This document shows positions 7,211 through 27,699 of a stretch of 64,000 bases of DNA, piece by piece; positions within the stretch are counted from its first letter, which is position 1; each line of letters starts with the position of its first letter. The stretch comes from an uncultured Bacteroides sp. GTDB lineage: Bacteria; Bacteroidota; Bacteroidia; Bacteroidales; JACABE01. The DNA lies in the NCBI GenBank assembly GCA_964496885.1, contig CAZCBG010000008.1:4354-68353 (forward strand). Direction: 5' to 3'. The notes under the pieces were generated by a model. The model had not been told where the DNA came from. It ran no database searches and saw only the letters and a program-made list of their open reading frames with translations. Made by a program: the position numbers and the translations under genes.

Positions 7211-7282
7211 ATGTAATTTTGTAAATGTAATACACATTGCATTTCAAAAACTAATTCTCAATAAATATTTTATTCATACATT

Positions 7283-11400: not shown

Positions 11401-13942
11401 AGTAAATGGTTTAACTCCAAACACACAATACTCTTTCAGAGTTGGTAAAAACGGAGCTTGGAGTACTATTGGATCTTTCAAAACTGCAAAAACTACCAAA
11501 GATGCTTTCTCTTTTGTTTATTTTACCGATCCACAAGCAAACACTGATGCCATGTTTAATGTTTCTCAAATTACCACTCATGCTGCTCAGACCATGTATC
11601 CAAATGCTAACTTCTGGTTAAGCTGTGGTGATTTGGTGGAATCCTCAGGTTCGGCAAATTCAGAATGGGAATATGAACAATTTTTCGAGACACAACAGGA
11701 TATTTTCATGAAGAATCCTTTTGCTCCTATTGAAGGAAACCATGACATTACTACAAATAAAAACTTTACCTACCATTTTAACACTGATTCTGTTGCTTTT
11801 GATTATGCAAAAGCAACAACACCCGGTAGCGTTTATTCATATGTTTATGGTGATGCTTTATTTATGCACTTGACTTACGAAAATTACAGTACAACAGGTT
11901 ATCTTGATTCATTGGCTAACTGGATGAATACCCAGGTAAAAGCTAATCCAACTACAAAATGGAGAATAGCCGTTTATCATAAAACAATGTATACAGGAAG
12001 CCAAAGTCATCAAAGTGATTCAGATGGTAAAACAGTTCGTTTGAAAATGGGACCTGTTTTCGATAGTTTAAAAGTAGATTTAGCTTTCCAGGGACATGAT
12101 CATGTTTATGAAATAATTGGACCTGTAAAAAATGTTTCATTAATACCTAATGCTGTTTCTAATCAAACTATAGTTACTGCAACGGTACGTGATAATGTTA
12201 CCGGATTACTAGGTGGTACTTTTGATGTAAAACAAGGAACATTATTTTTCTTAAACAATTCAGCTGGAAAGAAAAAATATGAACCACGTTCTTTAGCTCA
12301 AATGAATGCAGCTTATTCTGCAACACAAGTTCCAAATTATTTTGGAATGTTTACAGGTAGATTTGGTCAAACAGGCGAACCTACTTTCAGTAATGTTACT
12401 ATTAGTACTGATTCAATCAATATTTCTACTTATACTGTTGATAGTGTAGGAAATTCAACTATTTTTGATTCGTACAAAATTGTTAAAACTGATCAAGATA
12501 ATACATGGAATGGTTCTGCTGATAACAATTGGAACAAAGCTTCAAACTGGTCAGAAGGATTAATACCTACCCAGAATCAGAATGTGATAATACCTACTAA
12601 CGTTCCTAATTTCCCGACCGTTAGTTCTCCAGCTATCATTAACAATCTGACTGTTCAATCCAATTCAACTGCAACTGCCTCATTGTTGGATAATGGCCTT
12701 TTAACTTTAAATGGTAATGCTAGCATTAAATGTTACTTAAGTGGAAACAAATGGCATATGATTTCAATTCCAGTTCAATCAGCTACTTCAAGTGTATTTA
12801 ACTTAGGAGCCGGACAAGCTGATATTTATGCTAAAGGATACAGCAATGGTAACTGGGATAGTTTGATAACAAATCCAACTACTCCGCTTGTACTTAATAA
12901 AGGTTATGCTGTTTGGGCTGATACCCTAACTAATTCTACACCAAATCCAACATTAACTTTTACCGGAACTTTCAATACAGGAATCCAAACGCTACCTACC
13001 GAAACTGGCTGGAACCTGATCGGGAATCCTTTTATTTCTGCTATTGACTGGAATACGCTGAATTTAACCAATGTCAATGGTCAGGCTGTTAGAGTTTGGA
13101 ATCATGATTTACAACTTTATTCAACTTATAGCGCAATTGGTGGAGGTGTAGATGGTGGTAATCAATATTTATCTCCAATGCAGGCTTTCTTTGTTAAAGG
13201 ATTGAATACTGATGGTATAGCAATTTCTCATCCAAACAGAATTCATAATCCTCAACCTTTAATGAAAAGTGCTAACTCAACTATCAGTAATTTATTAAAA
13301 ATAAAAGCTCAGAGAAGTACTTATACTGATGAGATTAATGTTGTCTACAATACCATTGCAACGAATGGATATGATCCATTGTATGATGCCAATAAATTAT
13401 TTGTAACGGATAATAACATTCCTCAGGTATATTCATTAGCTAATAACAATGAATTAGCTATCAATGTATTTGGAAGTTTACCTGCAGCTATTCCTATGAA
13501 CATCAAATTAGGCGTTCCAGGAATTGTTAGTTTGACAGCTTCTGAAACAAATAGTTTTGATGCAAATATTTCAATTAAATTAGAAGATATTTTAAGTGGA
13601 ACTATTCAGGATTTACGCCAAAACCCTGTTTACGCTTTTAGTGCTTCGGCAAATGAAAATGCAAATAGATTCATTTTACATTTTGCATTGGCTCCAAATA
13701 GTATAAATGAAGCACCAATCAACAATACAAGTATTTATGCTTTCGATAAAACTATTTATGTAAATTCTAATGATAAAGTTAAAGAAATCAGTATTTATAA
13801 TATGCTTGGCCAGTTAATAACTTCAAAAATATGCAATGGCAGTGCCTTTAACTCAATTTCAATAAATAAAGCTTCAGCATTTTATATGGTTAGAGTTATT
13901 ACTGACAAAACTACTTACTCTGAAAAAGTATTTATAAAATAA
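8480..13942 (+). CDS. T9SS-secreted multidomain phosphoesterase: three calcineurin-like metallophosphoesterase domains (third is purple-acid-phosphatase type with FN3), a beta-rich stalk and a T9SS CTD (likely start is the ATG at 8531)
   Basis: Three motif sets: SDAHYG/GDIAN/GNHD/THDQ/FHGND; TDLHL/GDLT/GNHD/MHPG/GHFH; TDPQ/GDLVE/GNHD/YHKT/GHDH. Signal peptide ends TEA-Q. C-terminus YNMLGQL...KVFIK. Confidence 0.9.
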   Translation: MDKNIDTLINTIEIIKKMKRKKYFLDYFPKNFRKKFFNTLLLGICMLGFMSKTEAQIQFVYTSDAHYGITRARFQKAANVSATVVNGAMIAKMNNLTQLTFPNDGGVRSGYKVDSVDFVVMTGDIANRSETTIIPTLSASTCWSQFANDYINGTTLKDKTGSNSKLYLLPGNHDVSNAIGFYKTMSPLKDSATMVNIYNMMMPSPRAAGNYNYANEKIHYSKNIGGIHMMFVCMWPDSTERVWMANDLATVSSTTPVFIFTHDQPLVESKHLSNPNSPYTINSTNKFENLLLEKFKDGTAITAPSTIEQNGFASFVQAHPNIVAYFHGNDNQNNYYKYYGPNNNIAIDIIQVDSPMKGNISATDETKLSFQLITIDTLLKVMTVRECLYNTDTNNVYSPIIFGSSKTINFDVANYAQNTSTAGTKICSATDLHLMHPSLLVNDGVAFQTYLASDRKLIKESNAIMQELKNRIYEERPEIFLVPGDLTKDGEKISHQLMATYLDSIEMNGVTKVYVIPGNHDVNNVSAYSYDGSNVTKVDSVSPSDFKTIYNNFGYGEAVKTDTVSLSYLAKPKSKTWVLGIDVLEYDLNMAAGYPITEGKFKPSTYKWVLDRLKEAKDSSAVVLGMMHPGLTEHYTGQSVSFPEYVVLGWDTISKNFAKAGLKMMFTGHFHANDITKKSNPGNSSFVYDIETGSTVTWPCPYRVMDLKGDSILNVVTNRIQNINYNTNGMTFQNYALNYLNTGMTGIINYQLTHPPYSLDAGTAAAVTPHVVSAFTAHYAGDETIPASEQGFISYLNSVGQFSLASSLTNMWTDLTPSDNLVALPLKSSIDTINTIINNLIQSDYTVPSWTLFLRAKTAMVANQDSASIANMYSVIAKMKSSSMPYNIVMNINKDPKTKMAFNWFTNAGVTGGQVQIVTGNTNDTLAFNTPLMVVSARCDSAKNLNYSNSANGLLPLTGIADNSKKTYMFNKALVNGLTPNTQYSFRVGKNGAWSTIGSFKTAKTTKDAFSFVYFTDPQANTDAMFNVSQITTHAAQTMYPNANFWLSCGDLVESSGSANSEWEYEQFFETQQDIFMKNPFAPIEGNHDITTNKNFTYHFNTDSVAFDYAKATTPGSVYSYVYGDALFMHLTYENYSTTGYLDSLANWMNTQVKANPTTKWRIAVYHKTMYTGSQSHQSDSDGKTVRLKMGPVFDSLKVDLAFQGHDHVYEIIGPVKNVSLIPNAVSNQTIVTATVRDNVTGLLGGTFDVKQGTLFFLNNSAGKKKYEPRSLAQMNAAYSATQVPNYFGMFTGRFGQTGEPTFSNVTISTDSINISTYTVDSVGNSTIFDSYKIVKTDQDNTWNGSADNNWNKASNWSEGLIPTQNQNVIIPTNVPNFPTVSSPAIINNLTVQSNSTATASLLDNGLLTLNGNASIKCYLSGNKWHMISIPVQSATSSVFNLGAGQADIYAKGYSNGNWDSLITNPTTPLVLNKGYAVWADTLTNSTPNPTLTFTGTFNTGIQTLPTETGWNLIGNPFISAIDWNTLNLTNVNGQAVRVWNHDLQLYSTYSAIGGGVDGGNQYLSPMQAFFVKGLNTDGIAISHPNRIHNPQPLMKSANSTISNLLKIKAQRSTYTDEINVVYNTIATNGYDPLYDANKLFVTDNNIPQVYSLANNNELAINVFGSLPAAIPMNIKLGVPGIVSLTASETNSFDANISIKLEDILSGTIQDLRQNPVYAFSASANENANRFILHFALAPNSINEAPINNTSIYAFDKTIYVNSNDKVKEISIYNMLGQLITSKICNGSAFNSISINKASAFYMVRVITDKTTYSEKVFIK

Positions 13943-13978: not shown

Positions 13979-14200
13979 ATGAAAAATTCAATCAAAAAAA
14001 TTATCATACTTTTTTTTCTCTTAGCTGCCCCTGTTGTTATGAGCAATGTAATTGCTGATAACCCACAAAGTCCGGGTGGAAATCCATCAGGAGGAGTTCC
14101 CATTGATGGAGGAGCAAGTATAGTAATTGCTGCCAGCGCAATATATGGTGCCAGAAAAGCCCGTAAAGCATTGAAAACTAAAAAAGATGAAATTAATTAA
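13979..14200 (+). CDS. Small signal-peptide + PIDGG-TM-basic protein (PID-CTERM-like sorting-domain protein), copy 1
   Basis: Signal peptide (..VIA), then DNPQSPGGNPSGGV, then PIDGG, a hydrophobic helix and RKARK. 69/73 aa identical to the 26715 copy, with synonymous codon differences. Confidence 0.85.
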   Translation: MKNSIKKIIILFFLLAAPVVMSNVIADNPQSPGGNPSGGVPIDGGASIVIAASAIYGARKARKALKTKKDEIN

Positions 14201-14222
14201 TTAATCATTTCTTATACAATTC

Positions 14223-14259
14223 AAAGAGGCTGAATTCTTTCATAGATTCAGCCTCTTTT
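14223..14259 (+). terminator. Intrinsic terminator
   Basis: aaagaggctgaat-tctttcatag-attcagcctcttt(t), a 13-bp stem. Confidence 0.8.
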
Positions 14260-14403
14260 AATTTTATGTAATCAAAAAAAGCATTAAAAACTTTAATAAG
14301 TAGTGTATATTCTTTCGATGATGATCCTTGTTCTTTCAAAAGCTAATAATATATAATTAAATCATTTTTAAAAATTTATTCAGTTTCTCAATATTATTTA
14401 AGC

Positions 14404-14470
14404 TTAATATTTATATAATCATATCATAACATTAAATTAATCTGTTTTTAATTTACAATAATGAAATTTG
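14404..14470 (+). promoter_or_regulatory. Candidate Pho-box-like array plus variant -7 element upstream of the TBDR operon
   Basis: ttaatat (14404), ataatca (14415), ataacat (14426), ttaatct (14437), ttaattt (14448); GAAATTTG at 14463, 26 bp after 14437. Confidence 0.55.
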
Positions 14471-14540
14471 CAAAAAATAATATAGCATTACTTTAATTTA
14501 TTTAAAATTTACCTTATCAATATTAACTAAGAAAATTCAA

Positions 14541-15323
14541 ATGAAATATAATTTCATTATTTTAATATTATTATTTATAAATTTCAATTTGTTAGCTCAG
14601 AACAAAGAAAATAATTATATAATTACGCATAATGACAGTTTAGCATTGGAAAATATTATAGTTGAAAAATATTATATTGCCGATTCAACTGACTATCTGG
14701 ATTCAACCAAAAATTCTCTTCCTCTTGGTTCTGTAACTTACAGAATCTTTGTTGATATGAAACCTGCTTATAAACTACTATCTGTATTTGGAAGTCTAAA
14801 ACATGAATTATTTTTTTATTCAACCGAAAAATTTTTTAATGATTTGGAAGCTGATGCTATTACAGGTTTTAATATTAATATAAAAAATATCAGTAAAGCA
14901 AATATTGCATTGGATTCATGGATTACATTAGGCGCAGCTGCCAGAGGATTTACAGGCATCCCAAGAAATGAAGATACTATGGGATTAAAATTAATATACA
15001 ATAGGCCTTCCTTATATAAAGCCGGAGGATTTACAAAAGCAATTTTACCTGATTTTAAGCACTTCAACCTCGATTTCAGTGTTTTTGAAAAAGACACTAA
15101 CCAAGGAAGATTTTACACAAACAATGGAGCTTGGGCTGCACCTGGTGGTGTTAAAGGTCCCACACCTGATAATAAAGTTCTGATAGCTCAGATTACTACA
15201 AATGGTAAATTGAGTTTTAAACTGAATGTTCAAATTGGAACACCAAGTGGTGGATTTGTAATTTTCGTAGCTGATAAGCCCGAAGAAAATGAAATTGAAT
15301 TCAACAAATTGATTTTAAAATAA
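14541..15323 (+). CDS. Secreted protein consisting only of the unassigned VEKYY/TYRI/DSW/AQITT domain (paralogue 1)
   Basis: Signal peptide (LLA-Q); IVEKYYI, GSVTYRIFVDMKP, LDSWITLGAA, VLIAQITTNG, LNVQIGTP; no T9SS CTD. Confidence 0.85.
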   Translation: MKYNFIILILLFINFNLLAQNKENNYIITHNDSLALENIIVEKYYIADSTDYLDSTKNSLPLGSVTYRIFVDMKPAYKLLSVFGSLKHELFFYSTEKFFNDLEADAITGFNINIKNISKANIALDSWITLGAAARGFTGIPRNEDTMGLKLIYNRPSLYKAGGFTKAILPDFKHFNLDFSVFEKDTNQGRFYTNNGAWAAPGGVKGPTPDNKVLIAQITTNGKLSFKLNVQIGTPSGGFVIFVADKPEENEIEFNKLILK

Positions 15324-15350
15324 ATATATTAACCTTTAAATTATTACATT

Positions 15351-16448
15351 GTGAACAAAATTTATACAAATTTCTTATTCATAAGTCTGACATTTTTTGT
15401 AACTTTTTATAGTTATGCTCAGCATGGTCTCGATTCAGTCATAGTTGAAAAATATTATATTTCAAATTCAGCAGATTCAATTAAAAGTATTGGAATATTA
15501 CCTGCTAAATCTGTAACCTATAGAATATTTGTTGATATGAAACCTGGTTATAAATTTCAATCATCTTATGGAAGTGTGAATCATCCTCTTTTGATAACAA
15601 CAACTACTTCTTTTTTCAACAATGAAGATTATGGTTCAATATCTCCTGTATATACAAAAACACAAGCAAAGAAAAATACTGTTATGCTTGATTCCTGGCT
15701 ATCAGTAGGATCTGCATGTGTAGGTAATTTTGGCATTCTAAAATCAAGAGATAATGGTGTTGCTAATGTTATAAACGCAGATACAATTTTACAAAACAAT
15801 GATACTGCTGCAGGTATTCCTTTAACACAACAGGATGGCTTAATTAGCGGTAGTACGGGTACTTTTGGAGCCATTGGGATTGATAATGCTATAGCAGTTT
15901 TTGATGCAAGCAGTCAATTCGGAAATTCTTTTGTAGTTACCAATGGAGCATGGTATTGTTTAGCTGGTGCTATAGGTCCTGATACGAATAATCAGGTACT
16001 CATAGCCCAAATTACTACCAATGGCAGATTAAGGTTTAAACTAAATCTTCAATTAGGCACACCTACAGGAGGTACAGAAAATTATGTAGCTGAAAATCCA
16101 ATTGATTCGACTGAACACCAACGAGGTTATTTAACCTATGTTTCAGACACGAATATTAATATTATTGTTAATACGAATGATTTCAAAGAAAAAGAAAACT
16201 ACATCTCTGTTTTCCCCAATCCATCCAATGGTATTTATACGTTGAATGTATATTCTGTTGGTTTGAATTCTGAAAATTATTATTCCATCTATTCTATAAT
16301 GGGAAATTTAATTCTCAAGAAAAAAATGAACACTTTTATAGATGCTAAATCTGAAACCATCGATATAACATCAGTTCCTAAAGGTGTCTATTTTATTGAA
16401 ATTAATTTGAATGGGGTTTCATCTACAAAAAAAATAATTAAAAATTAA
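15351..16448 (+). CDS. T9SS cargo with the unassigned domain (paralogue 2)
   Basis: Same motifs as paralogue 1. C-terminal SVFPNPSNG...YSIMGNLI...KGVYFIEI...KKIIKN is a type A CTD. Confidence 0.88.
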   Translation: MNKIYTNFLFISLTFFVTFYSYAQHGLDSVIVEKYYISNSADSIKSIGILPAKSVTYRIFVDMKPGYKFQSSYGSVNHPLLITTTTSFFNNEDYGSISPVYTKTQAKKNTVMLDSWLSVGSACVGNFGILKSRDNGVANVINADTILQNNDTAAGIPLTQQDGLISGSTGTFGAIGIDNAIAVFDASSQFGNSFVVTNGAWYCLAGAIGPDTNNQVLIAQITTNGRLRFKLNLQLGTPTGGTENYVAENPIDSTEHQRGYLTYVSDTNINIIVNTNDFKEKENYISVFPNPSNGIYTLNVYSVGLNSENYYSIYSIMGNLILKKKMNTFIDAKSETIDITSVPKGVYFIEINLNGVSSTKKIIKN

Positions 16449-16481
16449 TTTTTTTCATCATTTAGTTTAATAACATTTCTT

Positions 16482-19400
16482 TTGTCCATATTCAGAACCT
16501 CTTTAGATCATAAATTTGAATATTTTATGAAATCATTCTTATTTCTTATTTCTATTATTTTTTTAATTTCTACAAATATATTTTCACAATGTATCATCAG
16601 AGGTAAGGTAACAGACTCAAAAGGTGAAACAATAGTTGGTGCATCTGTTTATCCAAAATCAAAAATGAATTTAGGTGTAGCTACCGACTTAAACGGTGAA
16701 TTTTCAATAAATTTACCTGAATCAGAAAAAGAAATTATAATCGTAAGATATATAAGTTATCAATCCATAGAAGACACTATAAAATACAAAAAAGGTATTA
16801 TTATAAAAAATTATGTTTTGGAAACTGTAACCAAAGCATTAAATGAAGTTGTTATCACTGCTAAAGCTTATAAAAATAATGATGCTCAGCTGGAAAAATT
16901 GAAAATGATTTCAATTTCTACAATTGATTATATTTCTGCTGAAACTATTAAAAAAACCGGTGATGCCAATGTAGCTTCAGCTGTTTCGCGTATTACCGGG
17001 GTTTCAACAACTAGCAGCGGATTGATTACAGTGCGCGGTGTAGGAGACCGATATGTAAAAACAACAATAAACGGAGCCCGAATACCCACCTTAGATCCTT
17101 TTACAAATAATATTAAATTAGATTTTATTCCTTCAAGTCTTGTCGATAATATTATCTTGTCAAAAACTTCCAGGCCCGATTTACCCGGAGACTGGGCAGG
17201 TGCTTTTATTTCAATTGAAACTAAAGATTATCCTGATACCCTTTCTTTATTTACAGAAACATCTTTTGGTTACAATTCCCAATCAACATTTAAAGATGTT
17301 CTTACTTCTCAAACAAGTTCAACCGACTGGCTTGGCTTTGATAATGGATTTCGTGACTTTGATCATAGTAATTATATTCAATTTAATAATACGCCTACAA
17401 AATATCAGGAATTTGCTGCCTTAGGTTTAGGCAATTTTTTTCAGTCGCTAGGCATAAATGCTAGCACACCCTGGAATGATACTTATTTTAAATTGGGATT
17501 AATTCAATTAGGATTATTAGGCAATGCACAAATAAATGATCCTCTAGCATTTCAAAATGCTACGAATATATATAATTCATTAGCTTATAAGGGAAAAGCT
17601 TTTAATATTATTAATTCAACTGCTGTTGAATCAGAGAAAAAACTTCCAAATAACTGGAATACAACAACTAAAAAAGCACCTATAAGTTTAAGTCAGAGTT
17701 TTTCAATTGGAAATCAAACAAAATTATTTGGGAAAACACTTGGTTATATAATTGGTTTGAGGTATTCAAGTTCTGTTCAATATGATCCGAATACGATTAA
17801 AAATGATTTTTCATTTCAATTTAACAATTTTAATTTACTTGATACGAATAGAAGTACATTTTCAAAATATCAGTTCATCAGCAAAGAGACAAACAGCTGG
17901 AGTGGTTTAATAAAATTAGCTTTAAAACTAAATAATAACAATAATTTTTCTTTCCTTTTTATGCCCAACATAATAGGAACAAATAATGTAAGAGATGCTG
18001 AATATGTTGAACCGGCTTCAAATGATCCAACGAATAACCCTCCAACTATAAATTATTCCAAATATCAATTTTATGAATCAAGGAAACAATTTATTTACCA
18101 GTTAAAAACCGAGCATTTTATTCCATCTAGAAAAATAAAAATTGATTTCAATGCTTCTTACACCAATGGGAAAAGCAATGCACCTGATTCAAAAATTTAT
18201 GAAAAGAAATTTGTAGATTCAAATGTTCCGAATGATTATTCAATCTATTTTACTTTTCCTGCTGTTAATATTAGTGATAAAAATAAACCTATCCGGTATT
18301 TTCGATTACTCACCGATAATGTTTTAAATGCACAGATTTCAGCAGAAATGCCTATTGACAAAAATCCTGATTTAATTCGAAAAATTAAAATTGGCAGCGA
18401 ATTTATTTATAATTATTTAGAAAATGAAAGCAATGTATATCAGTTTGTAAATGGTAACGGTTTTATTGATCCTACAGTTCAAACTTTACAAAAACTAAAT
18501 CCAGACTCTATTTTTAATATTGTAACTATTAATAATGGAGGAAATTTGCAACGATCAGTATATGGATTTTATGAGAAATACAGTAGGCCTATCGATGATT
18601 TTTTTGGGTACAGTACTATTTTCGCCTCTTATGCAATGGCAGATTATACGATAAGTCCAAAAATGAGAGCATCTGGTGGCCTCAGAATTGAAAAAGCTAA
18701 TATATATACAGATTGTAAGTTTTTTGATGAATTAGGTATAGTTGCCAATGATAATAGAAGAAAAATTGTAGATGTAAGAGGTACACAAATGGATGTTGAA
18801 CCCGGAGTATTGGATAAAGTATCTTTTTTGCCAAGTGTGAATTTTATTTTAAAATTAAAAAACACCGAATCATCTCTAATTAATTTAAGACTAAATTACA
18901 GCCAATCCGTTGCCCGTCCTAGTATCAGAGAACTTTCTGAAACTTCATTTTATGATTTTGAAACAAATTCTTATGTAAAAGGCAATGCTCAACTTAAAAT
19001 GGTAAAAATTAATAATCTTGACGCAAGAATAGAATATTATTTTAAATCGGGTGATAATATTTCAGCCAGTTTGTTTTATAAAGGCTTTGAAAATCATATT
19101 GAATTATCGAGTTGGGGATATGTATTATCTTGGATCAATAATCCGAATTATACAAATTTATATGGATTGGAACTGGAAGGTAAGAAAAATATAACTAAAC
19201 ACCTAGAATTTAAAGCAAATCTATCTTTAATATATTCTCAATCTGTATTAAATGGTGGAATATTATATGATTTAATGGGTCATATTTTCTTTTTAAAAGG
19301 TGGAAAAAGACCTATGTTTGGACAGGCACCTTACGTTTTAAACACTATGTTAACATATAATTTCCCTAAATATGGAATATCAACAACCTTAAGTTATAAC

Positions 19401-19703
19401 GTTCAAGGCAGTAAATTAGTAATAGTTACCGATCCAACAAAACCTGATATCTACGAGTTACCTAGACATTTGGTTGATTTTAAAATATCGAAAAAAATTG
19501 GGAATCATTTTAGTTTAAGTTTAAAAGTACTTGATATTTTTAATAATCCTGTTACAAGAGCTTATGTAAATGTAAATACAGATAATTATTTCAAAAATAT
19601 TTGGGATGATATCACCAATAAAAAACCGCTTGAAAACAATTTCATCTATAATAAATACAAATATGGAACAAATTACATTCTTTCATTTTCTTATAAAATT
19701 TAA
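16482..19703 (+). CDS. TonB-dependent receptor with N-terminal carboxypeptidase-like extension (likely start is the ATG at 16527)
   Basis: NTE IRGKVTD..GETIVGA; plug ITVRGVGDRY...LDFIPSSLVDNIILSK; C-terminal beta-strand ending YILSFSYKI. Confidence 0.92.
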   Translation: MSIFRTSLDHKFEYFMKSFLFLISIIFLISTNIFSQCIIRGKVTDSKGETIVGASVYPKSKMNLGVATDLNGEFSINLPESEKEIIIVRYISYQSIEDTIKYKKGIIIKNYVLETVTKALNEVVITAKAYKNNDAQLEKLKMISISTIDYISAETIKKTGDANVASAVSRITGVSTTSSGLITVRGVGDRYVKTTINGARIPTLDPFTNNIKLDFIPSSLVDNIILSKTSRPDLPGDWAGAFISIETKDYPDTLSLFTETSFGYNSQSTFKDVLTSQTSSTDWLGFDNGFRDFDHSNYIQFNNTPTKYQEFAALGLGNFFQSLGINASTPWNDTYFKLGLIQLGLLGNAQINDPLAFQNATNIYNSLAYKGKAFNIINSTAVESEKKLPNNWNTTTKKAPISLSQSFSIGNQTKLFGKTLGYIIGLRYSSSVQYDPNTIKNDFSFQFNNFNLLDTNRSTFSKYQFISKETNSWSGLIKLALKLNNNNNFSFLFMPNIIGTNNVRDAEYVEPASNDPTNNPPTINYSKYQFYESRKQFIYQLKTEHFIPSRKIKIDFNASYTNGKSNAPDSKIYEKKFVDSNVPNDYSIYFTFPAVNISDKNKPIRYFRLLTDNVLNAQISAEMPIDKNPDLIRKIKIGSEFIYNYLENESNVYQFVNGNGFIDPTVQTLQKLNPDSIFNIVTINNGGNLQRSVYGFYEKYSRPIDDFFGYSTIFASYAMADYTISPKMRASGGLRIEKANIYTDCKFFDELGIVANDNRRKIVDVRGTQMDVEPGVLDKVSFLPSVNFILKLKNTESSLINLRLNYSQSVARPSIRELSETSFYDFETNSYVKGNAQLKMVKINNLDARIEYYFKSGDNISASLFYKGFENHIELSSWGYVLSWINNPNYTNLYGLELEGKKNITKHLEFKANLSLIYSQSVLNGGILYDLMGHIFFLKGGKRPMFGQAPYVLNTMLTYNFPKYGISTTLSYNVQGSKLVIVTDPTKPDIYELPRHLVDFKISKKIGNHFSLSLKVLDIFNNPVTRAYVNVNTDNYFKNIWDDITNKKPLENNFIYNKYKYGTNYILSFSYKI

Positions 19704-19721
19704 AAATTAATATCACTTATT

Positions 19722-21044
19722 ATGAAATGGATTGTATTATTTTTTACATTGTTTTTAACTATAACAGTAAATGCACAGGATGCTATTATAAAAACGTTTG
19801 TTGAAACTTATTATATATCTGACAATAATGATGCTACCGATACTTTAGGTGGATTTCTTCAATCTGGATCAACCACATACAGGATATATCTGCAACTAAA
19901 AAAAGCATGTAAACTTTTATCTGTTTATGGAGATGCCAATCATACAATAAAAATTAACAGTACGGATGTATTTTTTAATAACAAGGATAGAGGCAAAACT
20001 TTTGGGAAAGAAATAGTAAAAACCAATCTTTCCAATAATACTGTAGCACTCGACAGCTGGATTACAATTGGCCAAGCAACAACGACTAAAAATGGGCTCA
20101 CCTATTTTGGAATTCCAAAATCCCTTGATAAAAATGCTTCGTTTATTGGTGGCATTAATAATGATGGAGGAAGTGCAGGAATTGCAAGCGGATTACTCAA
20201 AAATAATAATAGTCTAGCAGGCATACCAATAACTGCAGCTGATGGTATGGATACCATGATGAATATTCCATCTAATTGGGTGAATTTAGGATTTCTTGAT
20301 GCAATATCCGGTGTTGACTCTAGTATTTTCGGTTCAATAAAACCTGGCAAATCTTTTATAAGTAATAGTGCAAAATTACAAAACTCTGGCGTATCAGGTG
20401 TTGATCCTGATAGCAATTATGTTTTAGTTGCCCAGTTAACCACCAAAGGAAGTCTTTCATTTGAATTGAACGTCGAAATAATGAATCCTGATGGTTCTAC
20501 TACTAAATATACTGCAACTAGAAGTATTGATTCGCTAACTGTAAAACACTCCGGATGGCTCAAATTTCCTTATGAATGTGGGTGCATAGATCCAGCTTAT
20601 TTTGAATATAATTCAGATTATATATGTTCAAACCCTAATGAATGTGTTCATCCTATTGTTTTAGGTTGTATGGATCCCAATGCCTGTAATTATGATCCAA
20701 AAGCAAATTATAATGTAGCTTCATTGTGCTGTTATCCGGGCATGTGTGAAGGACGTGATATCAGTCTGGTTTGTCCCTCACTGAAAGGGGTATTCAAAAA
20801 AATGAGCTTATATCCTATCCCTGCTATAGACGTATTAACCTTAGAAACAAATAATGAAATTACAGAAGAAATAAAATTTGCCGTGTATAATTCCTATGGA
20901 AAAATTCAATTAGAGAAAAGTCTGGGCTCAGTATCAGGGAAAATCAATGAAAACATTAATGTATCTAAACTTGAAAAAGGTATATATTTAGTTCGTTTGT
21001 CCTCGGGTAATACTATTATCAGTAGCACTTTCATAAAATTATAA
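19722..21044 (+). CDS. T9SS cargo with the unassigned domain (paralogue 3), a Cys-rich GCMDPNACNY module and a CTD
   Basis: VETYYIS, GSTTYRIY, LDSWITIG, VLVAQLTTKG; CGCIDP...GCMDPNACNYDP...CCYPGMC; LYPIPA...KGIYLVRL...FIKL. Confidence 0.88.
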   Translation: MKWIVLFFTLFLTITVNAQDAIIKTFVETYYISDNNDATDTLGGFLQSGSTTYRIYLQLKKACKLLSVYGDANHTIKINSTDVFFNNKDRGKTFGKEIVKTNLSNNTVALDSWITIGQATTTKNGLTYFGIPKSLDKNASFIGGINNDGGSAGIASGLLKNNNSLAGIPITAADGMDTMMNIPSNWVNLGFLDAISGVDSSIFGSIKPGKSFISNSAKLQNSGVSGVDPDSNYVLVAQLTTKGSLSFELNVEIMNPDGSTTKYTATRSIDSLTVKHSGWLKFPYECGCIDPAYFEYNSDYICSNPNECVHPIVLGCMDPNACNYDPKANYNVASLCCYPGMCEGRDISLVCPSLKGVFKKMSLYPIPAIDVLTLETNNEITEEIKFAVYNSYGKIQLEKSLGSVSGKINENINVSKLEKGIYLVRLSSGNTIISSTFIKL

Positions 21045-21082
21045 ACAATCATCGCTTTCTAAAAAACAAAATAAATTTTACA

Positions 21083-21889
21083 TTGATGAAAACCAAGCAT
21101 AATTTTAATAATATATTCCCTCTTTTTATATTTTTTATTTTAGTTTTAATTTTTGGTTGTAAAAAAGAAAACTCCCTTAATGCTAATGAAACAGCAAGCA
21201 TGTCAGACATTGATGGCAACGTTTATAAAACTGTAAAAATTGGGAATCAATGGTGGATGGCAGAAAATCTAAAAGTTAGAAGATACAGAAATGGAGATAC
21301 TATCGATTTTGTAGGTCTTATTGGATATAATCTGGATTCTTTAAAATGGAACAACATAAATTATGGGGCCTTTTGTATAATTGATAATCTTGATTCAACC
21401 TCAAAAAATTTTAATGGAAAAAAATTCGGATTTTTATATAATGGATTTACTATAACTGATAGCAGGATAATTGCTCCTGCGGGTTGGCATATCCCAACTG
21501 ATGCAGAATGGAAAACATTGGAAATTTATCTTGGAATGAGCGATAACGAAGTAAATAAAACAAATTGGAGAGGAAGCATTGAAGGAAATAAACTAAAACT
21601 TCAATTAGGTTGGAATGATCTTTCCGAAAATAATTCGAATTATACTTTAAGTGAACAATATTATATTTATGGAACAAATGAAAGTGGATTTTCTGCTTTA
21701 GGTGGTGGATGTTGTATGTACAATGGAAAATGGAGTGACCCCCAAACATTTGCCTCCGGTTTTTGGTGGACATCTTCTATAATTGACAATAAAATATTAT
21801 ACAGGTATCTGGATTACCATAAACCCAATGTATTCAGGTACTATGCTTCCAAAACCTATGGCTTCAATATCAGGTGTGTAAAAGACTAA
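21083..21889 (+). CDS. FISUMP (Fibrobacter succinogenes major paralogous domain) lipoprotein
   Basis: Lipobox-like IFG-C-KKE; DIDGNVYKTVKIGNQWWMAENL, GFLYN, APAGWHIPTDAEW, NESGFSALGGG, GFNIRCVKD. Confidence 0.9.
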   Translation: MMKTKHNFNNIFPLFIFFILVLIFGCKKENSLNANETASMSDIDGNVYKTVKIGNQWWMAENLKVRRYRNGDTIDFVGLIGYNLDSLKWNNINYGAFCIIDNLDSTSKNFNGKKFGFLYNGFTITDSRIIAPAGWHIPTDAEWKTLEIYLGMSDNEVNKTNWRGSIEGNKLKLQLGWNDLSENNSNYTLSEQYYIYGTNESGFSALGGGCCMYNGKWSDPQTFASGFWWTSSIIDNKILYRYLDYHKPNVFRYYASKTYGFNIRCVKD

Positions 21890-22146
21890 ACTATATTATC
21901 TCTCCTATCTTATCATTCAACTTTATTTTTTTATATACATTATTATTTTCAATTTTATACCAATTATTTTTTAATTCTAATTTCAATTACATAATTGCTT
22001 AACGATAAAAAAATCAAGCAATTTCTCCATTAAAGATTAATTTATATTGAAGGTAATGTAATATCAACAGGTACAAAAAGTATTTTGTTATAGATCAAAA
22101 TATAAAAACTGTGACTTTATAATAACTTAATATTTTCATATTTTCC

Positions 22147-22224
22147 TTAACATTATTTTAGTATTAATATAATTATTTCATAAACTTATCTTCTCTTTTA
22201 ATTAACCTAGCTACAATACATTTG
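22147..22224 (+). promoter_or_regulatory. Candidate Pho-box-like array (weaker) plus -7 element
   Basis: ttaacat (22147), ttagtat (22158), ataatta (22169), ataaact (22180), ttaacct (22202), all in 11-bp phase; TACATTTG at 22217. Confidence 0.45.
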
Positions 22225-22267
22225 CAACATTATTAATAAATGAAATCACAAACAAAAAAAAATTAAA

Positions 22268-24097
22268 ATGAAAAAGAAAATTACAAAGATGCTGATGATT
22301 GCATGTATTTTAGCAATCTCAGTTAATACTGGCTTTGCTCAGTATAATGACTTAAACAACGGAGCAGAGTGTGGATGTCCTGCAGTTGGTTCTAGAACCA
22401 TTGTAACACTTGAATCTATGGGAACAAGTATTGGTACTAATGAATATGAAATTCAGGCCAATACAACACTTACCTGCAACAATATGTACACAATTTCTCA
22501 CAAGATTTATGTTGGGTATGGTGTTACGCTTACCATTCAACCTGGAACAGTAATTAAAGGTCAATGGGTAGACCCTGTAACTGGAAATGCTTCAGTTCTT
22601 TTAGTTGAAAGAGGTGGGAAAATTATTGCTGATGGTAAAGCGAATTGTAAAATTATTTTTACAGGTATCAATGACCCATTAGATGGTACATATGCTGTAA
22701 CCAATGTAGGTGATTGGGGTGGAATAGTAATGTGCGGTTTTGCTACCAATAACTTATCAACTGCCCGTAACTTTGGAACAGGTATGAAGGGTGCAGGTTG
22801 GAATGGAGTTGGTTTTTGCGAAGGATTAGACAACACTACCAAACATTTATGGGGAGCAGGAGATACTATTACATTAGCTAACGGTCAAGCAGTATCAATT
22901 CCAACAACATTTAATGACAATGACAACTCAGGAATTTTAAGATATGTGTCTGTTCGTCACGCCGGTATGCTTGTTGGTGGAAATACAGCTGGTAACGAAT
23001 TAAACGGTATTTCATTGTATTCAGTGGGTCGTGGAACTAAAATTGAATATGTTGAAACAGTTGCTGCTGCAGATGATAATTTTGAAATGTTTGGTGGTAC
23101 TGTTGATTTAAAACACTGTTCAGTATTATATGGTGACGATGATTTTTATGATTATGATTTAGGTTGGACAGGTAGAATGCAATTTTGTTTTGGTATAGCC
23201 GGCGACAGCTTAACCGGTTTACATTCAACTGATAATGGATATGAATGTGATGCTGATGATAATGGCAGCAGTACTACTTTTGATCGTTCACATCCAGTTA
23301 TTTACAATACAACACTTATTGGCAATGGACATATTAAAGGAACTGCTGATAATACGGGCCCTGCTGCTATTATGGCAAAAGAACTTACTGAAGGAAGCTT
23401 TATCAATAATGTATTTGTTAACTTCCGTTCAGGATTACATTTAAATACAGGCAGACAAGGTACAGGTACAGGTAAAGGCGGTGATGCCTATGATAACTGG
23501 ACAGATCATGGTCCTACTACTTATATAAATCCAAGTTATCCTACTGGTTCAGGTTGGGGAGCCACACAAAATGCAAAACTTCAATCATTAATTGTTAAAA
23601 ACAATACGTTTGTTCATTGTAATTTAACCAACGAAACTGCCCCTAATGGAAATTCATACTGGATTACTAAAGGTAATAAATTAACTACAGGCTCAGGTGC
23701 TACAATTGGTATTAATACCTCTGTTATAGCAAGTGCTGCCGATACTTTACAGTTTTACAATGATGGAAATACTCATCTTTCTGTTGTTCCTGGTATTGAT
23801 TATACATGGTCATGGAATGTAGCAAAAACCGATTTTTCAGATAAATATCATGCAGTTCCTACAACAAGTTTAACTTCAAATATGACACCTCCAAATGATG
23901 GTTTCTTTGATATTGTTAGCTTTAGAGGTGCTTTTGATCCAAGCAAAAAAAGCTGGTTATCAACTGATAATGGATTTATGATTCCTGTTGCAGATAATAT
24001 GCGTTCTGATAACCCAACTGACATTAACAATGATGGAGTTACTGATGTTACTGACTTCCTTATTTTACTCGGTAAATTTGGACAATCTAATCAATAA
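22268..24097 (+). CDS. Secreted right-handed beta-helix protein of the type that accompanies SusD-less TBDRs, with a C-terminal dockerin/EF-hand-like motif
   Basis: GTVIKG, VERGGKIIADG, WGGIVMCG, DNDNSGILRYVSVRHAG, NELNGISLYSVGRGT.IEYVE, DDNFEMFGGTV, DDFYDYD.G, RGAF; tail DINNDGVTDVTDFLILLGKFG. Confidence 0.8.
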   Translation: MKKKITKMLMIACILAISVNTGFAQYNDLNNGAECGCPAVGSRTIVTLESMGTSIGTNEYEIQANTTLTCNNMYTISHKIYVGYGVTLTIQPGTVIKGQWVDPVTGNASVLLVERGGKIIADGKANCKIIFTGINDPLDGTYAVTNVGDWGGIVMCGFATNNLSTARNFGTGMKGAGWNGVGFCEGLDNTTKHLWGAGDTITLANGQAVSIPTTFNDNDNSGILRYVSVRHAGMLVGGNTAGNELNGISLYSVGRGTKIEYVETVAAADDNFEMFGGTVDLKHCSVLYGDDDFYDYDLGWTGRMQFCFGIAGDSLTGLHSTDNGYECDADDNGSSTTFDRSHPVIYNTTLIGNGHIKGTADNTGPAAIMAKELTEGSFINNVFVNFRSGLHLNTGRQGTGTGKGGDAYDNWTDHGPTTYINPSYPTGSGWGATQNAKLQSLIVKNNTFVHCNLTNETAPNGNSYWITKGNKLTTGSGATIGINTSVIASAADTLQFYNDGNTHLSVVPGIDYTWSWNVAKTDFSDKYHAVPTTSLTSNMTPPNDGFFDIVSFRGAFDPSKKSWLSTDNGFMIPVADNMRSDNPTDINNDGVTDVTDFLILLGKFGQSNQ

Positions 24098-24115
24098 TCA
24101 TTAATAAATATAAAA

Positions 24116-26683
24116 ATGAAAAAAATATTAATCGTATTAAGCCTTCTCTTTTTGGGTATTTTTACCCAGGCACAGAATGGCTTAGAAAAAATTGTTGTTG
24201 AAAAGTATTATATCACCAATACTGCAGATTCAATAGCAAATGATAATAATGGAACTAATACAACTGGTAGCCTAAATGTAGGATCTGTTACCTATAGAAT
24301 TTATGCTGATATGCTTCCCGGTTATAAATTTCAGTCTGCTTATGGTAGTACTAATCACAATCTTAAATTCACTACTTCTACATATTTTTATAATGATATA
24401 AATAATGGTACTTATTATCCAGTTTATACCAAAACAAAATTTAAACAATTTACTACAGGTATAGATTCTTGGATATCTGTTGGTGCTGCATGTGGAGGTA
24501 ATTTTGGTGTGCTTAAAACAGATGATAATGCCACATCTAATGCACTTACTATATCTAATGGATCATTAACAAATAACGATCCTAAAATGGGTATTCCATT
24601 ATACACCAGAGATGGTTTACTATTAGGCTCACCTGTTACAACTGTTTCAATAGCTGGTATGGATGCTACAATTCCTGCTGATAATGGAGTACTTGATGTT
24701 TTTGACACACAGGAAACTGCAAATTCATTTATTTTAACCGGTTCAGCATGGTCCTCACAATCTGGTTCATTGGGAGTAAATGCTGATACAAACAGGGTAT
24801 TAATTGCACAGATTACAACCAATGGCGTATTCCATTACGAATTAAATATACAGATAGGAACACCGAGTTTAGGAATAGAACAATACGTTTCAAGTAATCC
24901 AGTTTTAGTAAATCTTGGACCTTATGGAATTCAAATGGAAAGAACAATACCATCACTCACCGGAACATACAATGTTGCCCCAAGTGTAAGTATTACTTCT
25001 CCTTCAAACAATTCATATTCATATAGCGGTGTTGCTACAGCTATTACAGCTGCAGCTTCTGATTTAGATGGTACCGTAACTCAGGTTGAATTTTTTGTAG
25101 ATGGTATTTCAATTGGTGTTACTACTTCTACTTATACTGTAAATTATACAGGTGTAACAGGAACACATACTTTAACAGCCATAGCAACTGACAATGATGG
25201 TAAAACTACCACTTCAAGTCCTGTAACTTTAATTTGTGTTCCTCAAAATTCTACTTGGTCAGGTGCTATTAGTAATGCATGGTCAAATACTGCAAACTGG
25301 GATTACTTTCCTGTAGCTGTTTCTAATGTTATCATACCTGTTGTTACAACAAATTATCCTACCGTTTCTGCTGCTACAACTATTAACAACTTAACTTTAG
25401 AATCAAATACAAGCGGAACCGCTTCATTATTAGATAATAGTTTATTAACCGTTAATGGAACAGCTAATGTAAAATTATATGTAACCGGAAACAAATGGCA
25501 TATGCTTAGCATCCCTGTGCAATCAGCAACTTCAAATGTATTTCATTTAGCTGTTGGTCAAGCAGATATGTATGTTAAAGGATATGTTGCAGGAAACTGG
25601 GGTAGTTTAATTACAAATACTTCAACTCCATTAATTCCAGGTATTGGATATGCAGTTTGGGCTGACACACAAACCGGTTCAACACCTAATCCAACCATTA
25701 TTTTTAATGGCAGTCTTAATACCGGAAACCAAGCATTAACTACAGAAGTTGCTTGGACACTTGTTGGAAATCCTTATACTTCGTCTTTAGATTGGAACAC
25801 AATAAATTCTTCAAACACTGAAGGACAGGTTGTTAGAGTTTGGAGTGATGCCTTACAATTATATACTTCTTTCCAAAATGGTGGAATCAGCTTAAACGGA
25901 GGTAGTCAATACCTTTCTCCAATGCAGGCATTCTTTGTTAAAGGTTTAAATACTAACGGTATTAATTTAACTAATGCAAATAGAGTTCATAATAATCAAG
26001 CTTTTCAAAAAAGCAGCAATACTATCAATAATTTAGTTAAGATTAAAGCTCAACGGAGTACTTATTCAGATGAAATTGCTTTTGCTTACAATACGAATGC
26101 AACTAACAATTATGATAATTTGTATGATGCAAGTAAATTATTTTCAACAGAAAATAATATTCCTCAAGTATATACTTTAGCAGATAACAATGAATTATCA
26201 ATCAATGCTTTTGGTAGTTTACCTGTAGCTTTTCCGGTAAATATCAAATTAGGTGTTGCTGACAATGTTGTATTAACTGCATCTGAGTTTAATAATTTTG
26301 ATCCAAGTGTTTCAATTATATTAGAAGATATATTAAGTGGAACTTTTCATGATTTACGTCAGAACCCTGTTTACGCTTTTAGTGCATCAGCTAATGAAAA
26401 TGCAAACAGATTTGTTTTACATTTTGGAATGGCACCAAATAGTATTAACCAAGCATCAATCAACAATACAAGTATTTATGCTTACGAAAAAACTATTTAT
26501 GTTAATTCAAATGACAAAATAAAAGAAATCAGTATCTATAATATGCTTGGTCAGTTAATAACTTCAAAATTATGCAATGGTAATAGCTTAAACTTAATTT
26601 CAATAAGTAAAGCTTCAGCATTTTATATGGTTAGAGTTATCACAGACAAAACCACTTACAGTGAAAAAGTATTTATAAAATAA
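24116..26683 (+). CDS. T9SS cargo: unassigned domain (paralogue 4) + Ig-like (Big) domain + stalk shared with the triple phosphatase + CTD
   Basis: VVEKYYIT, GSVTYRIY, IDSWISVGAA, VLIAQITTNG; APSVSITSP...VEFFVDG...HTLTAIATDNDG; YNMLGQL...KVFIK. Confidence 0.9.
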   Translation: MKKILIVLSLLFLGIFTQAQNGLEKIVVEKYYITNTADSIANDNNGTNTTGSLNVGSVTYRIYADMLPGYKFQSAYGSTNHNLKFTTSTYFYNDINNGTYYPVYTKTKFKQFTTGIDSWISVGAACGGNFGVLKTDDNATSNALTISNGSLTNNDPKMGIPLYTRDGLLLGSPVTTVSIAGMDATIPADNGVLDVFDTQETANSFILTGSAWSSQSGSLGVNADTNRVLIAQITTNGVFHYELNIQIGTPSLGIEQYVSSNPVLVNLGPYGIQMERTIPSLTGTYNVAPSVSITSPSNNSYSYSGVATAITAAASDLDGTVTQVEFFVDGISIGVTTSTYTVNYTGVTGTHTLTAIATDNDGKTTTSSPVTLICVPQNSTWSGAISNAWSNTANWDYFPVAVSNVIIPVVTTNYPTVSAATTINNLTLESNTSGTASLLDNSLLTVNGTANVKLYVTGNKWHMLSIPVQSATSNVFHLAVGQADMYVKGYVAGNWGSLITNTSTPLIPGIGYAVWADTQTGSTPNPTIIFNGSLNTGNQALTTEVAWTLVGNPYTSSLDWNTINSSNTEGQVVRVWSDALQLYTSFQNGGISLNGGSQYLSPMQAFFVKGLNTNGINLTNANRVHNNQAFQKSSNTINNLVKIKAQRSTYSDEIAFAYNTNATNNYDNLYDASKLFSTENNIPQVYTLADNNELSINAFGSLPVAFPVNIKLGVADNVVLTASEFNNFDPSVSIILEDILSGTFHDLRQNPVYAFSASANENANRFVLHFGMAPNSINQASINNTSIYAYEKTIYVNSNDKIKEISIYNMLGQLITSKLCNGNSLNLISISKASAFYMVRVITDKTTYSEKVFIK

Positions 26684-26714
26684 ACAAATTTTTAAATTCT
26701 TAAAAAAAATAATC

Positions 26715-26936
26715 ATGAAAAATTCAATCAAAAAATTTATCATACTTTTTTTCCTGATGGCAGCTCCTGTTGTTATGAGCAATGTAATTGCTGATAATCC
26801 ACAAAGTCCGGGCGGAAATCCATCAGGAGGAGTTCCCATTGATGGAGGAGCAAGTATAGTAATAGCAGCCAGTGCTATATACGGTGCCAGAAAAGCTCGT
26901 AAAGCAATGAAAATTAAAAAAGATGAAATAAATTAA
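26715..26936 (+). CDS. Small PID-CTERM-like protein, copy 2
   Basis: Mature part DNPQSPGGNPSGGVPIDGG is identical to the 13979 copy. Confidence 0.85.
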   Translation: MKNSIKKFIILFFLMAAPVVMSNVIADNPQSPGGNPSGGVPIDGGASIVIAASAIYGARKARKAMKIKKDEIN

Positions 26937-26957
26937 TTAATCATTTTAATCAAAATC

Positions 26958-26993
26958 AAAGAGACTGTATCTTTTTAAAATACAGTCTCTTTT
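26958..26993 (+). terminator. Intrinsic terminator
   Basis: aaagagactgtat-ctttttaaa-atacagtctcttt(t). Confidence 0.8.
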
Positions 26994-27048
26994 CTTATTT
27001 ATTTACATTTAATCAGTGCCTTAAAACATCTTAATAATATTTCAATTT

Positions 27049-27699
27049 ATGCTTATAAATCTTCAAAATCTCAAAGCTAAGATTCAAGAAATTAAATTAT
27101 CCATCAATAAAAATTATATTTTAAAAACATTTGGGATTCGCTTACTCCTATTAATGGGAGTTGGGGCCATTGTTTTATTTATATTAAGAAATAATTCTGA
27201 ACTGAAATACATGGTCCAACACGCTCAGTTTATATATGATTTTTATAGAACTATAATGTATTCAAGCTTATACATATTAAAATTTTTAGGATTTGATGCT
27301 TATATCTATTATTCCGAAACTATTTACAAATATGGAGTGTATGCAATGGGAATCGTTGGATCAAAGTCAATTTTTATGGGTATATCATGTATTGGAATGA
27401 CTTTAATGGGTGTATTTATTGCTTTAATCATTTCATATCCAGGAAAAATAAAACATAAATTATGGCTTATACCTAGTGGTTTAATTATCATTCAAATACT
27501 CAATATCGTACGAATGTGCACACTTACGATTTTAGTTCATAATGGATTCGTACATACATTTAATGATTACAATTTTTTAGGAATATTGAAATTTAATCAT
27601 CATGATCTTTTTAATTTTTTTATTTACATCATTATTTTTGGCATGTTTGTTTTTTACATTAATACATTTGGTTTAAAAAAACTTCAGAAAATGGGATAA
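27049..27699 (+). CDS. Exosortase/archaeosortase-family membrane peptidase
   Basis: Multi-TM protein with candidate triad Cys (ISCIG), Arg (LNIVR) and His (NHHDLF). ALIISYPG...KLWLIPSGL.II..LN..R matches the XrtF-like pattern. Lies next to a PIDGG protein. Confidence 0.8.
   Translation: MLINLQNLKAKIQEIKLSINKNYILKTFGIRLLLLMGVGAIVLFILRNNSELKYMVQHAQFIYDFYRTIMYSSLYILKFLGFDAYIYYSETIYKYGVYAMGIVGSKSIFMGISCIGMTLMGVFIALIISYPGKIKHKLWLIPSGLIIIQILNIVRMCTLTILVHNGFVHTFNDYNFLGILKFNHHDLFNFFIYIIIFGMFVFYINTFGLKKLQKMG

Follow-up and report, generated by a model that had tools for sequence, protein, structure and literature searches.

Exosortase systems are widespread and poorly understood. In Bacteroidota no substrate has been shown for any exosortase, including XrtF of Flavobacterium johnsoniae; the ΔxrtF mutant and the mutant of its partner gene have the phenotype pattern of ΔporU and ΔporZ mutants (PMC10936215), which is a hint of a link to the T9SS (type IX secretion system). 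For two related sorting systems, PMC7468200 cites cleavage, joining of the new C-terminus to a lipid-type moiety and anchoring at the surface: GlyGly-CTERM with rhombosortase (VesB of Vibrio cholerae) and PGF-CTERM with archaeosortase A (the S-layer glycoprotein of Haloferax). The moiety added by rhombosortase contains glycerophosphoethanolamine and is required for surface anchoring (cited in PMC7468200). On the T9SS side, type-B adhesins (SprB-SprF, Fjoh_3952-Fjoh_3951) need a PorP/SprF-like partner stoichiometrically for secretion and anchoring (PMC12618676, PMC9143113). For type-A adhesins such as RemA, whose C-terminal domain (CTD) gives “both anchoring and release”, surface holding and the handover to the gliding machinery are unsettled (PMC12618676). 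Here we describe a locus in a 64,000-nucleotide (nt) stretch of contig CAZCBG010000008.1 from an uncultured Bacteroides sp. (the window), where two genes for RemA-type T9SS proteins are each followed by a gene for a PID-CTERM micro-protein, the second of these by an exosortase gene. Judged by its profile matches, the locus is a member of two known kinds, the PID-CTERM domain and the exosortase superfamily. The pairing of stalk gene and micro-gene is conserved in other Bacteroidota, which suggests that exosortase processing is linked to type IX surface proteins.

The features that make up the locus are the following.

8480-13942 (+), T9SS type-A cargo gene 1, 1820 amino acids (aa) from a mechanical TTG start; TIGR04183 31.0 bits, cutoff 23
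12440-13684 (+), RemA-type C-terminal stalk of cargo 1, aa 1321-1735; CTD-free hidden Markov model (HMM) of the stalk, E 2e-156
13685-13939 (+), T9SS type-A CTD of cargo 1; TIGR04183 match at aa 1758-1820
13979-14200 (+), PID-CTERM micro-protein gene A, 73 aa; NF046080 34.9 bits, cutoff 26
24116-26683 (+), T9SS type-A cargo gene 2, 855 aa; TIGR04183 34.0 bits, cutoff 23
25181-26425 (+), RemA-type stalk of cargo 2, aa 356-770; homology to the cargo 1 stalk, stalk HMM
26426-26680 (+), T9SS type-A CTD of cargo 2; TIGR04183 match at aa 793-855
26715-26936 (+), PID-CTERM micro-protein gene B, 73 aa; NF046080 34.9 bits, cutoff 26
27049-27699 (+), exosortase-family gene, 216 aa, PID-adjacent paralogue; TIGR04178 37.6 bits, cutoff 23

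Micro-genes A and B start 36 and 31 nt, respectively, past the stop codons of cargo genes 1 and 2. Their translations have the same layout, with a signal peptide (assigned by eye rather than by a predictor), the segment DNPQSPGGNPSGGV, PIDGG, the hydrophobic span ASIVIAASAIYGA and a basic tail. The two proteins differ at four residues (I8F, L15M, L65M, T67I), and the mature segment, the PIDGG motif and the hydrophobic span are free of replacements. By the Nei-Gojobori count there are 13.5 synonymous and 4.5 non-synonymous differences, giving a ratio of non-synonymous to synonymous rates (dN/dS) of 0.08; against the orthologues of micro-gene B, which occupy the equivalent position in loci L005 (75 aa) and L008 (74 aa), the ratio is about 0.2. 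An earlier interpretation made from the letters of the window (the sequence-only reading) had noted two 73-aa open reading frames close behind T9SS genes, had counted four residue differences with none in the mature part despite synonymous changes, and had concluded that the frames are under purifying selection; the gaps, the counts and the ratios bear it out on all three points.

The PID_CTERM model NF046080, with a cutoff of 26 bits, is passed by all three micro-proteins of the window, A and B scoring 34.9 bits each and a further one, C (see below), 26.7 bits. PID_CTERM was the sole family reported: no other CTERM model, PEP-CTERM included, matched the micro-proteins at E ≤ 0.01, and a Pfam scan of the micro-proteins gave no match. 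Their relatives are tagged PF28310 (PID_CTERM) in precomputed Pfam annotation, and some are already named PID-CTERM proteins at NCBI. When 1.84 billion representative proteins were searched exhaustively by HMMER with a profile of nine micro-protein sequences, 2,470 clusters at 50% identity were returned (E ≤ 0.001). In the best 150 of these 2,470 clusters the median length is 75 aa, 141 of 149 being no longer than 100 aa, and the motif reads PIDGG in 105, PLDGG in 11 and PVDGG in 9. A second profile search, in which up to 8,000 candidates were scored, gave 6,829 clusters or more at 90% identity; among the matches listed, PF28310 is present on every one and the length is 63-92 aa in nearly all. 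The sequence-only reading had pointed to a PID-CTERM family in Bacteroidota, with no function known for members as short as these. The assignment to the family is confirmed by the scores of A and B with the NCBIfam HMM, whereas the idea that short members are unusual is rejected by the cluster numbers and the median of 75 aa, since a format of about 75 aa is that of a very large body of the family.

The anatomy of the micro-proteins is uniform. The same order is seen in 242 relatives: a signal peptide and then, right at the C-terminal end, the motif, a hydrophobic span and a basic tail. The segment from the signal-peptide core to the motif has a median length of 20 residues and a composition of 25% Gly and 23% Pro. 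Across thousands of clusters the P, D, G and G of the motif, and the Y-G and K-K downstream of it, vary little or not at all. Judged by their dN/dS values, by the 2,470 and at least 6,829 clusters and by this anatomy, the micro-genes are real genes. One relative, P0041 (155 aa), consists of two complete micro-proteins in tandem, through fusion or a merged gene call, each with a signal peptide, a Pro-rich linker and a PID-type tail. A degenerate DNA pattern for the micro-protein tail, run over metagenome contigs, gave six chance matches, none of which had a tail of transmembrane span plus stop.

Both genes in front of the twin micro-genes encode a variable head, a stalk and a type-A CTD. The head of cargo 1 matches Metallophos (100 bits) and Pur_ac_phosph_N (53.6 bits) in Pfam; the true start of this protein is likely the first ATG, near 8531, with a signal-peptide-like basic and hydrophobic stretch beginning MKRKKYF. 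The head of cargo 2 consists of an unknown domain and Big_7 (49 bits). Over their last 500 aa the two proteins are 66% identical, their CTD copies have about 89% nt identity, and the orthologues of cargo 2 in L005 and L008 have a stalk identity of 76-78%. TIGR04183 is matched by all 13 stalk proteins that we collected, while PF18962 stays below its gathering score of 27 on both window cargo proteins (19.3 and 21.2 bits). Apart from the terminal CTD, Pfam and NCBIfam recognised nothing in the C-terminal region of the stalk proteins.

A profile built from the 13 stalks and compared with the sequences of the PDB matched RemA of F. johnsoniae (8gl6_D, residues 875-1436) with an E-value of 1.2e-53 and RemZ (8gl8_D, residues 539-1111) with 7.4e-45. 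The alignment of the stalks with RemA and RemZ keeps all motifs, namely WxG...W...NW, NLxGNPYxS, YDA, LEDxxTG and RFxL, followed by the CTD. On the evidence of this alignment, the module of about 450 aa in front of the CTD is homologous to the C-terminal region of RemA and RemZ. In the structures of RemA and RemZ (8gl6, 8gl8) the CTD alone is resolved (PMC10994853). Our AlphaFold2 model of the stalk, made from an alignment of the two window sequences only, has a mean predicted local distance difference test score of 34.5 and is confident for the CTD only.

To judge how widely the pairing occurs, we looked at the surroundings of top-scoring micro-genes; the distant ones were picked only for the length of their contigs, apart from one, which was taken from a named genus. 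In L019, L029, L030 (twice), L033/34, L035, L036, L037, L038 and L039 a large gene on the same strand ends 20-144 nt upstream of the micro-gene. All of these distant upstream genes bear the stalk of the window, with E-values from 1e-19 to 1e-160 (tblastn with the window stalk, the CTD-free stalk HMM and hhalign; the L039 stalk has an hhalign probability of 99.6%). Counted over dereplicated contexts of micro-genes, a stalk gene lies 20-144 nt upstream in 10 of 13, or in 9 of 12 if the window twin is counted once; counted from the other side, 11 of the 12 distinct stalk genes seen have a micro-gene behind them. The sole stalk-bearing T9SS gene seen without one is at 1467-3452 of L019, 4.5 kb upstream of a paired stalk gene.

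Across lineages, identity is 34-65% for the micro-proteins and 21-43% for the stalks, and the heads of the paired genes are unrelated (phosphatase, Big_7, GEVED, Gly_rich_2/fn3, DUF2341, LTD). The paired lineages span Bacteroidales and Chitinophagia, one pair coming from Flavipsychrobacter (class Chitinophagia). Two further genes of the window, at 15351-16448 and 19722-21044, have a type-A CTD and no micro-gene behind them. The coupling to T9SS cargo that the sequence-only reading had expected in relatives is thus found in 10 of 13 contexts, with the restriction that it concerns carriers of the RemA/RemZ-like module of about 450 aa and not T9SS cargo generally.

Two kinds of neighbouring gene recur at the cassettes. 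One, resembling the Ala-racemase-N and D-Ser-dehydratase families, is found directly behind the cassette in L030 (10312-11406), L033 (10300-11397) and L036 (10259-11410); its presence in three related loci with differing heads points to a swapping of heads on a fixed chassis. The other carries a Beta_helix_4 tag and stands immediately 5' of the stalk gene in L025 (5570-7387) and in the distant L019 (4927-7941). A 609-aa gene of the window (22268-24097) holds the same position and had no match in a local Pfam scan. The gene that precedes the stalk gene may be a third conserved component of the cassette.

In the window, a repeat from about 12590 to about 14210 spans the stalk, the CTD, the micro-gene and a terminator hairpin. 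Three hairpins belong to this part of the locus.

14223-14258 (+), intrinsic-terminator-like hairpin with a T-tract, 14-pair stem, closing the unit of cargo 1 and micro-gene A
26958-26992 (unstranded), palindromic terminator-like hairpin between micro-gene B and the exosortase gene, 16-pair stem
27925-27947 (+), terminator-like hairpin after the exosortase gene

The hairpin behind micro-gene B is homologous to the one behind micro-gene A; both are strong, and a T-tract follows both. The extent of this repeat shows that the twin arose in a single segmental duplication, which took in the stalk, the CTD, the micro-gene and the terminator. The synonymous divergence (dS) between the copies reaches 1.09 in the stalk and is lower in the CTD (0.31) and the micro-gene (0.34), which indicates that, once duplicated, the 3' block was homogenised through gene conversion. 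We considered a reading of the twin as two independent couplings and rejected it in favour of one duplication with gene conversion. In the window cassettes the large gene is followed by its micro-gene with no terminator-like site in between, and this arrangement indicates that the two are probably co-transcribed. For these questions we used the terminator results alone and set aside a sigma-70 promoter scan, which is uninformative here because of the AT-rich sequence and the different promoters of Bacteroidota.

A second twin is found in L030, an unrelated metagenome contig with tandem cassettes whose micro-genes lie at 5030-5251 and 10001-10222. Here the micro-proteins are 99% and the stalks 43% identical; at the DNA level the micro-gene and about 70 nt on each side of it are 95-100% identical, the CTD and the stalk 50-60%. 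Together with the dS contrast in the window, this shows that micro-gene copies of one genome are held close to each other in sequence, whereas the partners upstream of them diverge. Such homogenisation leads us to read the micro-protein as generic, with a supply coupled to each stalk gene, and not as one half of a cargo-specific lock and key.

The exosortase gene starts 112 nt downstream of micro-gene B. All 15 relatives compared have the residues C114, N152, R155, H184 and H185 of its product, and its adjacency to the micro-gene is kept in L005 and L008, so that the sequence-only reading was right to see an exosortase with Cys, Arg and His behind the second copy. The best subfamily matches are XrtX and XrtY, with scores well below the cutoffs: 74.1 bits against 170 for XrtX (NF046081; 53.8-83.3 bits across the members of the clade) and 67.8 against 160 for XrtY (NF046083). 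The relatives all fall short of the XrtX and XrtY cutoffs by as much. XrtF (TIGR04128) scores 26.8 bits against a cutoff of 90. The clade is small, with 20 clusters that all come from uncultured Bacteroidales or metagenome-assembled genomes (MAGs) of Bacteroidetes. Scores below half of the XrtX and XrtY cutoffs and the small size of the clade place the enzyme in an unnamed exosortase subfamily.

In loci retrieved with the exosortase, members of the clade occur in two contexts. In the first (window, L005, L008) the order is T9SS cargo (850 aa), micro-gene, exosortase and MarC; in the second (L001, L002, L007, L010) it is a gene of about 321 aa, an XrtA-type polysaccharide deacetylase and the exosortase, and there is no micro-gene. 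Both paralogues are present in two MAGs, and the exosortases of the first context form one separate clade. The PID-adjacent paralogue is lineage-specific. We infer that the exosortase behind micro-gene B is the cognate enzyme of the window micro-proteins. In the second context, which covers L001 7983-9830, L002 3402-5212, L007 4646-6519 and L010 8162-9975, the deacetylase is TIGR03006-like (238 bits, cutoff 276) and the gene of about 321 aa was compared to FemAB/VimA-like proteins, with a sub-threshold GNAT match (E 0.007). The gene order is the same as in the vimA-like/deacetylase/exosortase loci discussed in PMC7468200. An unannotated 191-aa gene after the micro-gene of L035 was examined as a candidate exosortase and rejected.

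A third micro-gene, overlooked by the sequence-only reading, was found by a six-frame motif search.

33566-33799 (+), PID-CTERM micro-protein gene C, 77 aa; NF046080 26.7 bits, cutoff 26

Its product reads MRNIIFTLLIIMGSIGLFAQ-PIPPGGGVAGAGHGLSGNQGGNGA-PIDGG-FSILILLGAIYGAKNIKK... and is 41-42% identical to A and B. The orthologue in L008 (16682-16915) is 68% identical, with a dN/dS of 0.18. Micro-gene C has no T9SS gene in front of it; its neighbours are a divergently transcribed GT4 glycosyltransferase gene of 891 aa (30683-33358, −), a second GT4 gene (34696-35736, +), which is glycolipid-synthase-like (IagA/BgsA-like, 148 bits, under cutoff), and a DedA/UptA-like gene (35720-36334, +). These glycolipid-type neighbours could relate to the acceptor of the exosortase.

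The cassette is best explained as a gene for a variable head, the RemA/RemZ module and a CTD, followed by a gene for a precursor of about 75 aa; in the window there are two copies and then a dedicated exosortase. The precursor comprises a Sec signal peptide, a Pro/Gly-rich segment of 10-25 residues and a PID-CTERM signal. Sec would export it and the signal peptide would be removed, after which the exosortase in the inner membrane, with its Cys, Arg and His, would cut at PIDGG. The Pro/Gly peptide would then be passed via its new C-terminus to an acceptor in the envelope, most likely a lipid; we propose this processing step because of the experimental precedents of rhombosortase and archaeosortase A. 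The resulting micro-peptide, generic and identical from all cassettes in a cell, would be the one-for-one partner of the RemA-type protein, and its role would most likely be to tether or retain that protein at the surface after export by the T9SS. Our preferred reading, which we hold tentatively and regard as close to an even call, is therefore that an exosortase-processed Pro/Gly micro-peptide is made in step with RemA-type proteins and acts as their partner, probably in surface retention.

Several points weigh against this reading. Standalone micro-genes make up 3 of the 13 contexts (L031/32, L040 and window copy C), and the sampled micro-genes were top-scoring matches to a profile seeded with this locus, which may enrich the paired subfamily. 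None of the distant pairs has an exosortase of the window clade within 10 kb. Exosortases act at the inner membrane, and we know of no route that carries a lipid-linked peptide from there to the cell surface. Type-A cargo has its own route of anchoring, the transfer by PorU to anionic lipopolysaccharide (LPS), so that a second anchor is not obviously needed. A bolder form of the proposal, in which the micro-protein is the missing anchor or adaptor of RemA-type adhesins, a lipid-linked Pro/Gly peptide consumed one-for-one by the stalk and maybe leaving with it through the laterally open SprA translocon, seems to us unlikely. If true, it would give Bacteroidota a second attachment route independent of anionic LPS and would explain the porU/porZ-like phenotype pattern of the F. 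johnsoniae exosortase mutants.

The micro-proteins might instead be generic exosortase substrates whose peptides join a surface or exopolysaccharide-associated layer, as has been proposed for small low-complexity PEP-CTERM proteins, their position reflecting shared regulation or expression level and no partnership. This would suit the exosortase paralogues of the same clade in polysaccharide-type loci, beside an XrtA-type deacetylase (the TIGR03006-like one of 238 bits), sugar epimerases and dehydratases, the location of micro-gene C between GT4 glycosyltransferases and a DedA/UptA-like gene, the 3 unpaired contexts, and a micro-protein sequence that is specific to the genome rather than to the cargo. 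It is hard, however, to explain by co-regulation alone why 10 of 13 micro-genes are paired with one module, across stalks of 21-43% identity and unrelated heads, and why 11 of 12 stalk genes have one; moreover, the O-glycosylation motif of Bacteroidota occurs in only 4 of the 242 linkers. On balance we find this explanation somewhat unlikely. The lack of a nearby exosortase gene at most pairs would also fit a micro-protein that remains uncleaved and spans the inner membrane once, with a Pro/Gly segment in the periplasm that holds, escorts or times the RemA-type module before export, and tight one-to-one pairing with probable co-transcription is what a dedicated export factor would have. We rate this decidedly unlikely, given the near-invariant P, D, G, G, Y-G and K-K, the signature of a sorting signal recognised by an enzyme, the shortness of the hydrophobic span (a median of 13 hydrophobic residues from the motif to the first Lys or Arg in the 242 members), and the exosortase directly behind the cassette in the window lineage.

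The sequence-only reading had put forward that the micro-peptide could be an acceptor for the cargo. Spelled out as a model, the free N-terminal amine of the processed, membrane-linked micro-peptide would serve as the nucleophile for the T9SS sortase PorU, and the new C-terminus of the cargo would end up covalently bound to the micro-peptide rather than to anionic LPS. Gln at the mature N-terminus of secreted Bacteroidota proteins is normally cyclised to pyroglutamate, whereby the amine is blocked, and a small residue followed by Gln stands at the signal-peptide junction in 184 of the 242 members (76%). Lys occurs in only 21 of the 242 linkers, and the model leaves the specificity for RemA-type stalks unexplained, as the type-A CTD genes at 15351-16448 and 19722-21044 have no micro-gene. 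These observations weaken the model family-wide and make it improbable in our view, even though a one-to-one pairing fits a consumable acceptor, the predicted mature N-terminus in the window lineage is Asp and not Gln, and PorU works by transpeptidation to an amine on the linking sugar (PMC7468200). We can hardly credit the remaining explanation, that the small frames are non-functional or the source of a released peptide signal: purifying selection, thousands of conserved homologues and curated families speak against the former, and a linker that is low in complexity and highly variable is unlike a specific signalling peptide. Nothing in our results supports the diffusible signal that the sequence-only reading had also suggested.

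Between and around the cassettes, the head of cargo 2 (24116-25000) belongs to a paralogous repeat family with the genes at 14541-15323, 15351-16448 and 19722-21044, two of which carry a T9SS CTD. These paralogues flank a TonB-dependent receptor and a FISUMP-domain gene (16482-19703, 21083-21889), so that the region between the cassettes looks like a surface nutrient-capture locus. Positions 4001-8000 of the window have a G+C content of 24%, as against about 32% elsewhere, and a tRNA-Asn (42421-42497, −) was the one RNA gene detected across the window.

The scale of the family and its uniform micro-protein format, the pairing with RemA-type genes and the homogenisation of micro-genes within genomes appear to be new; the curators' notes of NF046080 and PF28310 may already record part of this. 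A literature search found no publications on PID-CTERM or XrtX, and nothing in the literature examined describes a pairing of PID-CTERM micro-genes with RemA-type T9SS genes or mentions Fjoh_0802, Fjoh_0804, Fjoh_0807 or Fjoh_0809, neighbours of remA and remZ in F. johnsoniae. With this pairing, many thousands of proteins of about 75 aa, mostly annotated as “hypothetical”, have a consistent genomic partner. A pair of RemA-type cargo and exosortase-signal micro-gene in at least two Bacteroidota classes also offers a concrete hypothesis, testable by knockout, to the fields of exosortases and of type IX secretion.

Of the described systems, PID-CTERM with XrtX and XrtY is the closest in that three micro-proteins pass its model and the enzyme is nearest to these two exosortases, but the window enzyme scores under half of either cutoff. 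With PEP-CTERM and XrtA (EpsH) the locus shares a C-terminal arrangement of motif, hydrophobic span and basic tail on Sec-exported proteins, a polytopic enzyme with Cys, Arg and His, many small low-complexity substrates and enzyme paralogues in polysaccharide loci. It differs in the motif, which is PIDGG and not PEP, in the phylum, Bacteroidota, and in the arrangement of the substrate genes, which are one-to-one with T9SS cargo here and scattered or regulated by PrsK/PrsR there. RemA and RemZ are homologous in module and CTD to both window proteins and to every paired upstream gene; the head of RemA is a lectin, whereas the window heads are a phosphatase and Big_7. SprB-SprF likewise combines a T9SS adhesin gene with a dedicated partner gene immediately downstream, a resemblance of logic alone, since the partner there is an outer-membrane β-barrel and the cargo has a type-B CTD, as against a 73-aa micro-protein and a type-A CTD (TIGR04183) here. 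Finally, the product anchored by rhombosortase or archaeosortase A is itself a functional protein, whereas here it would be a Pro/Gly peptide of 10-25 residues, so that any function would have to come from the peptide conjugate or from what the peptide binds.

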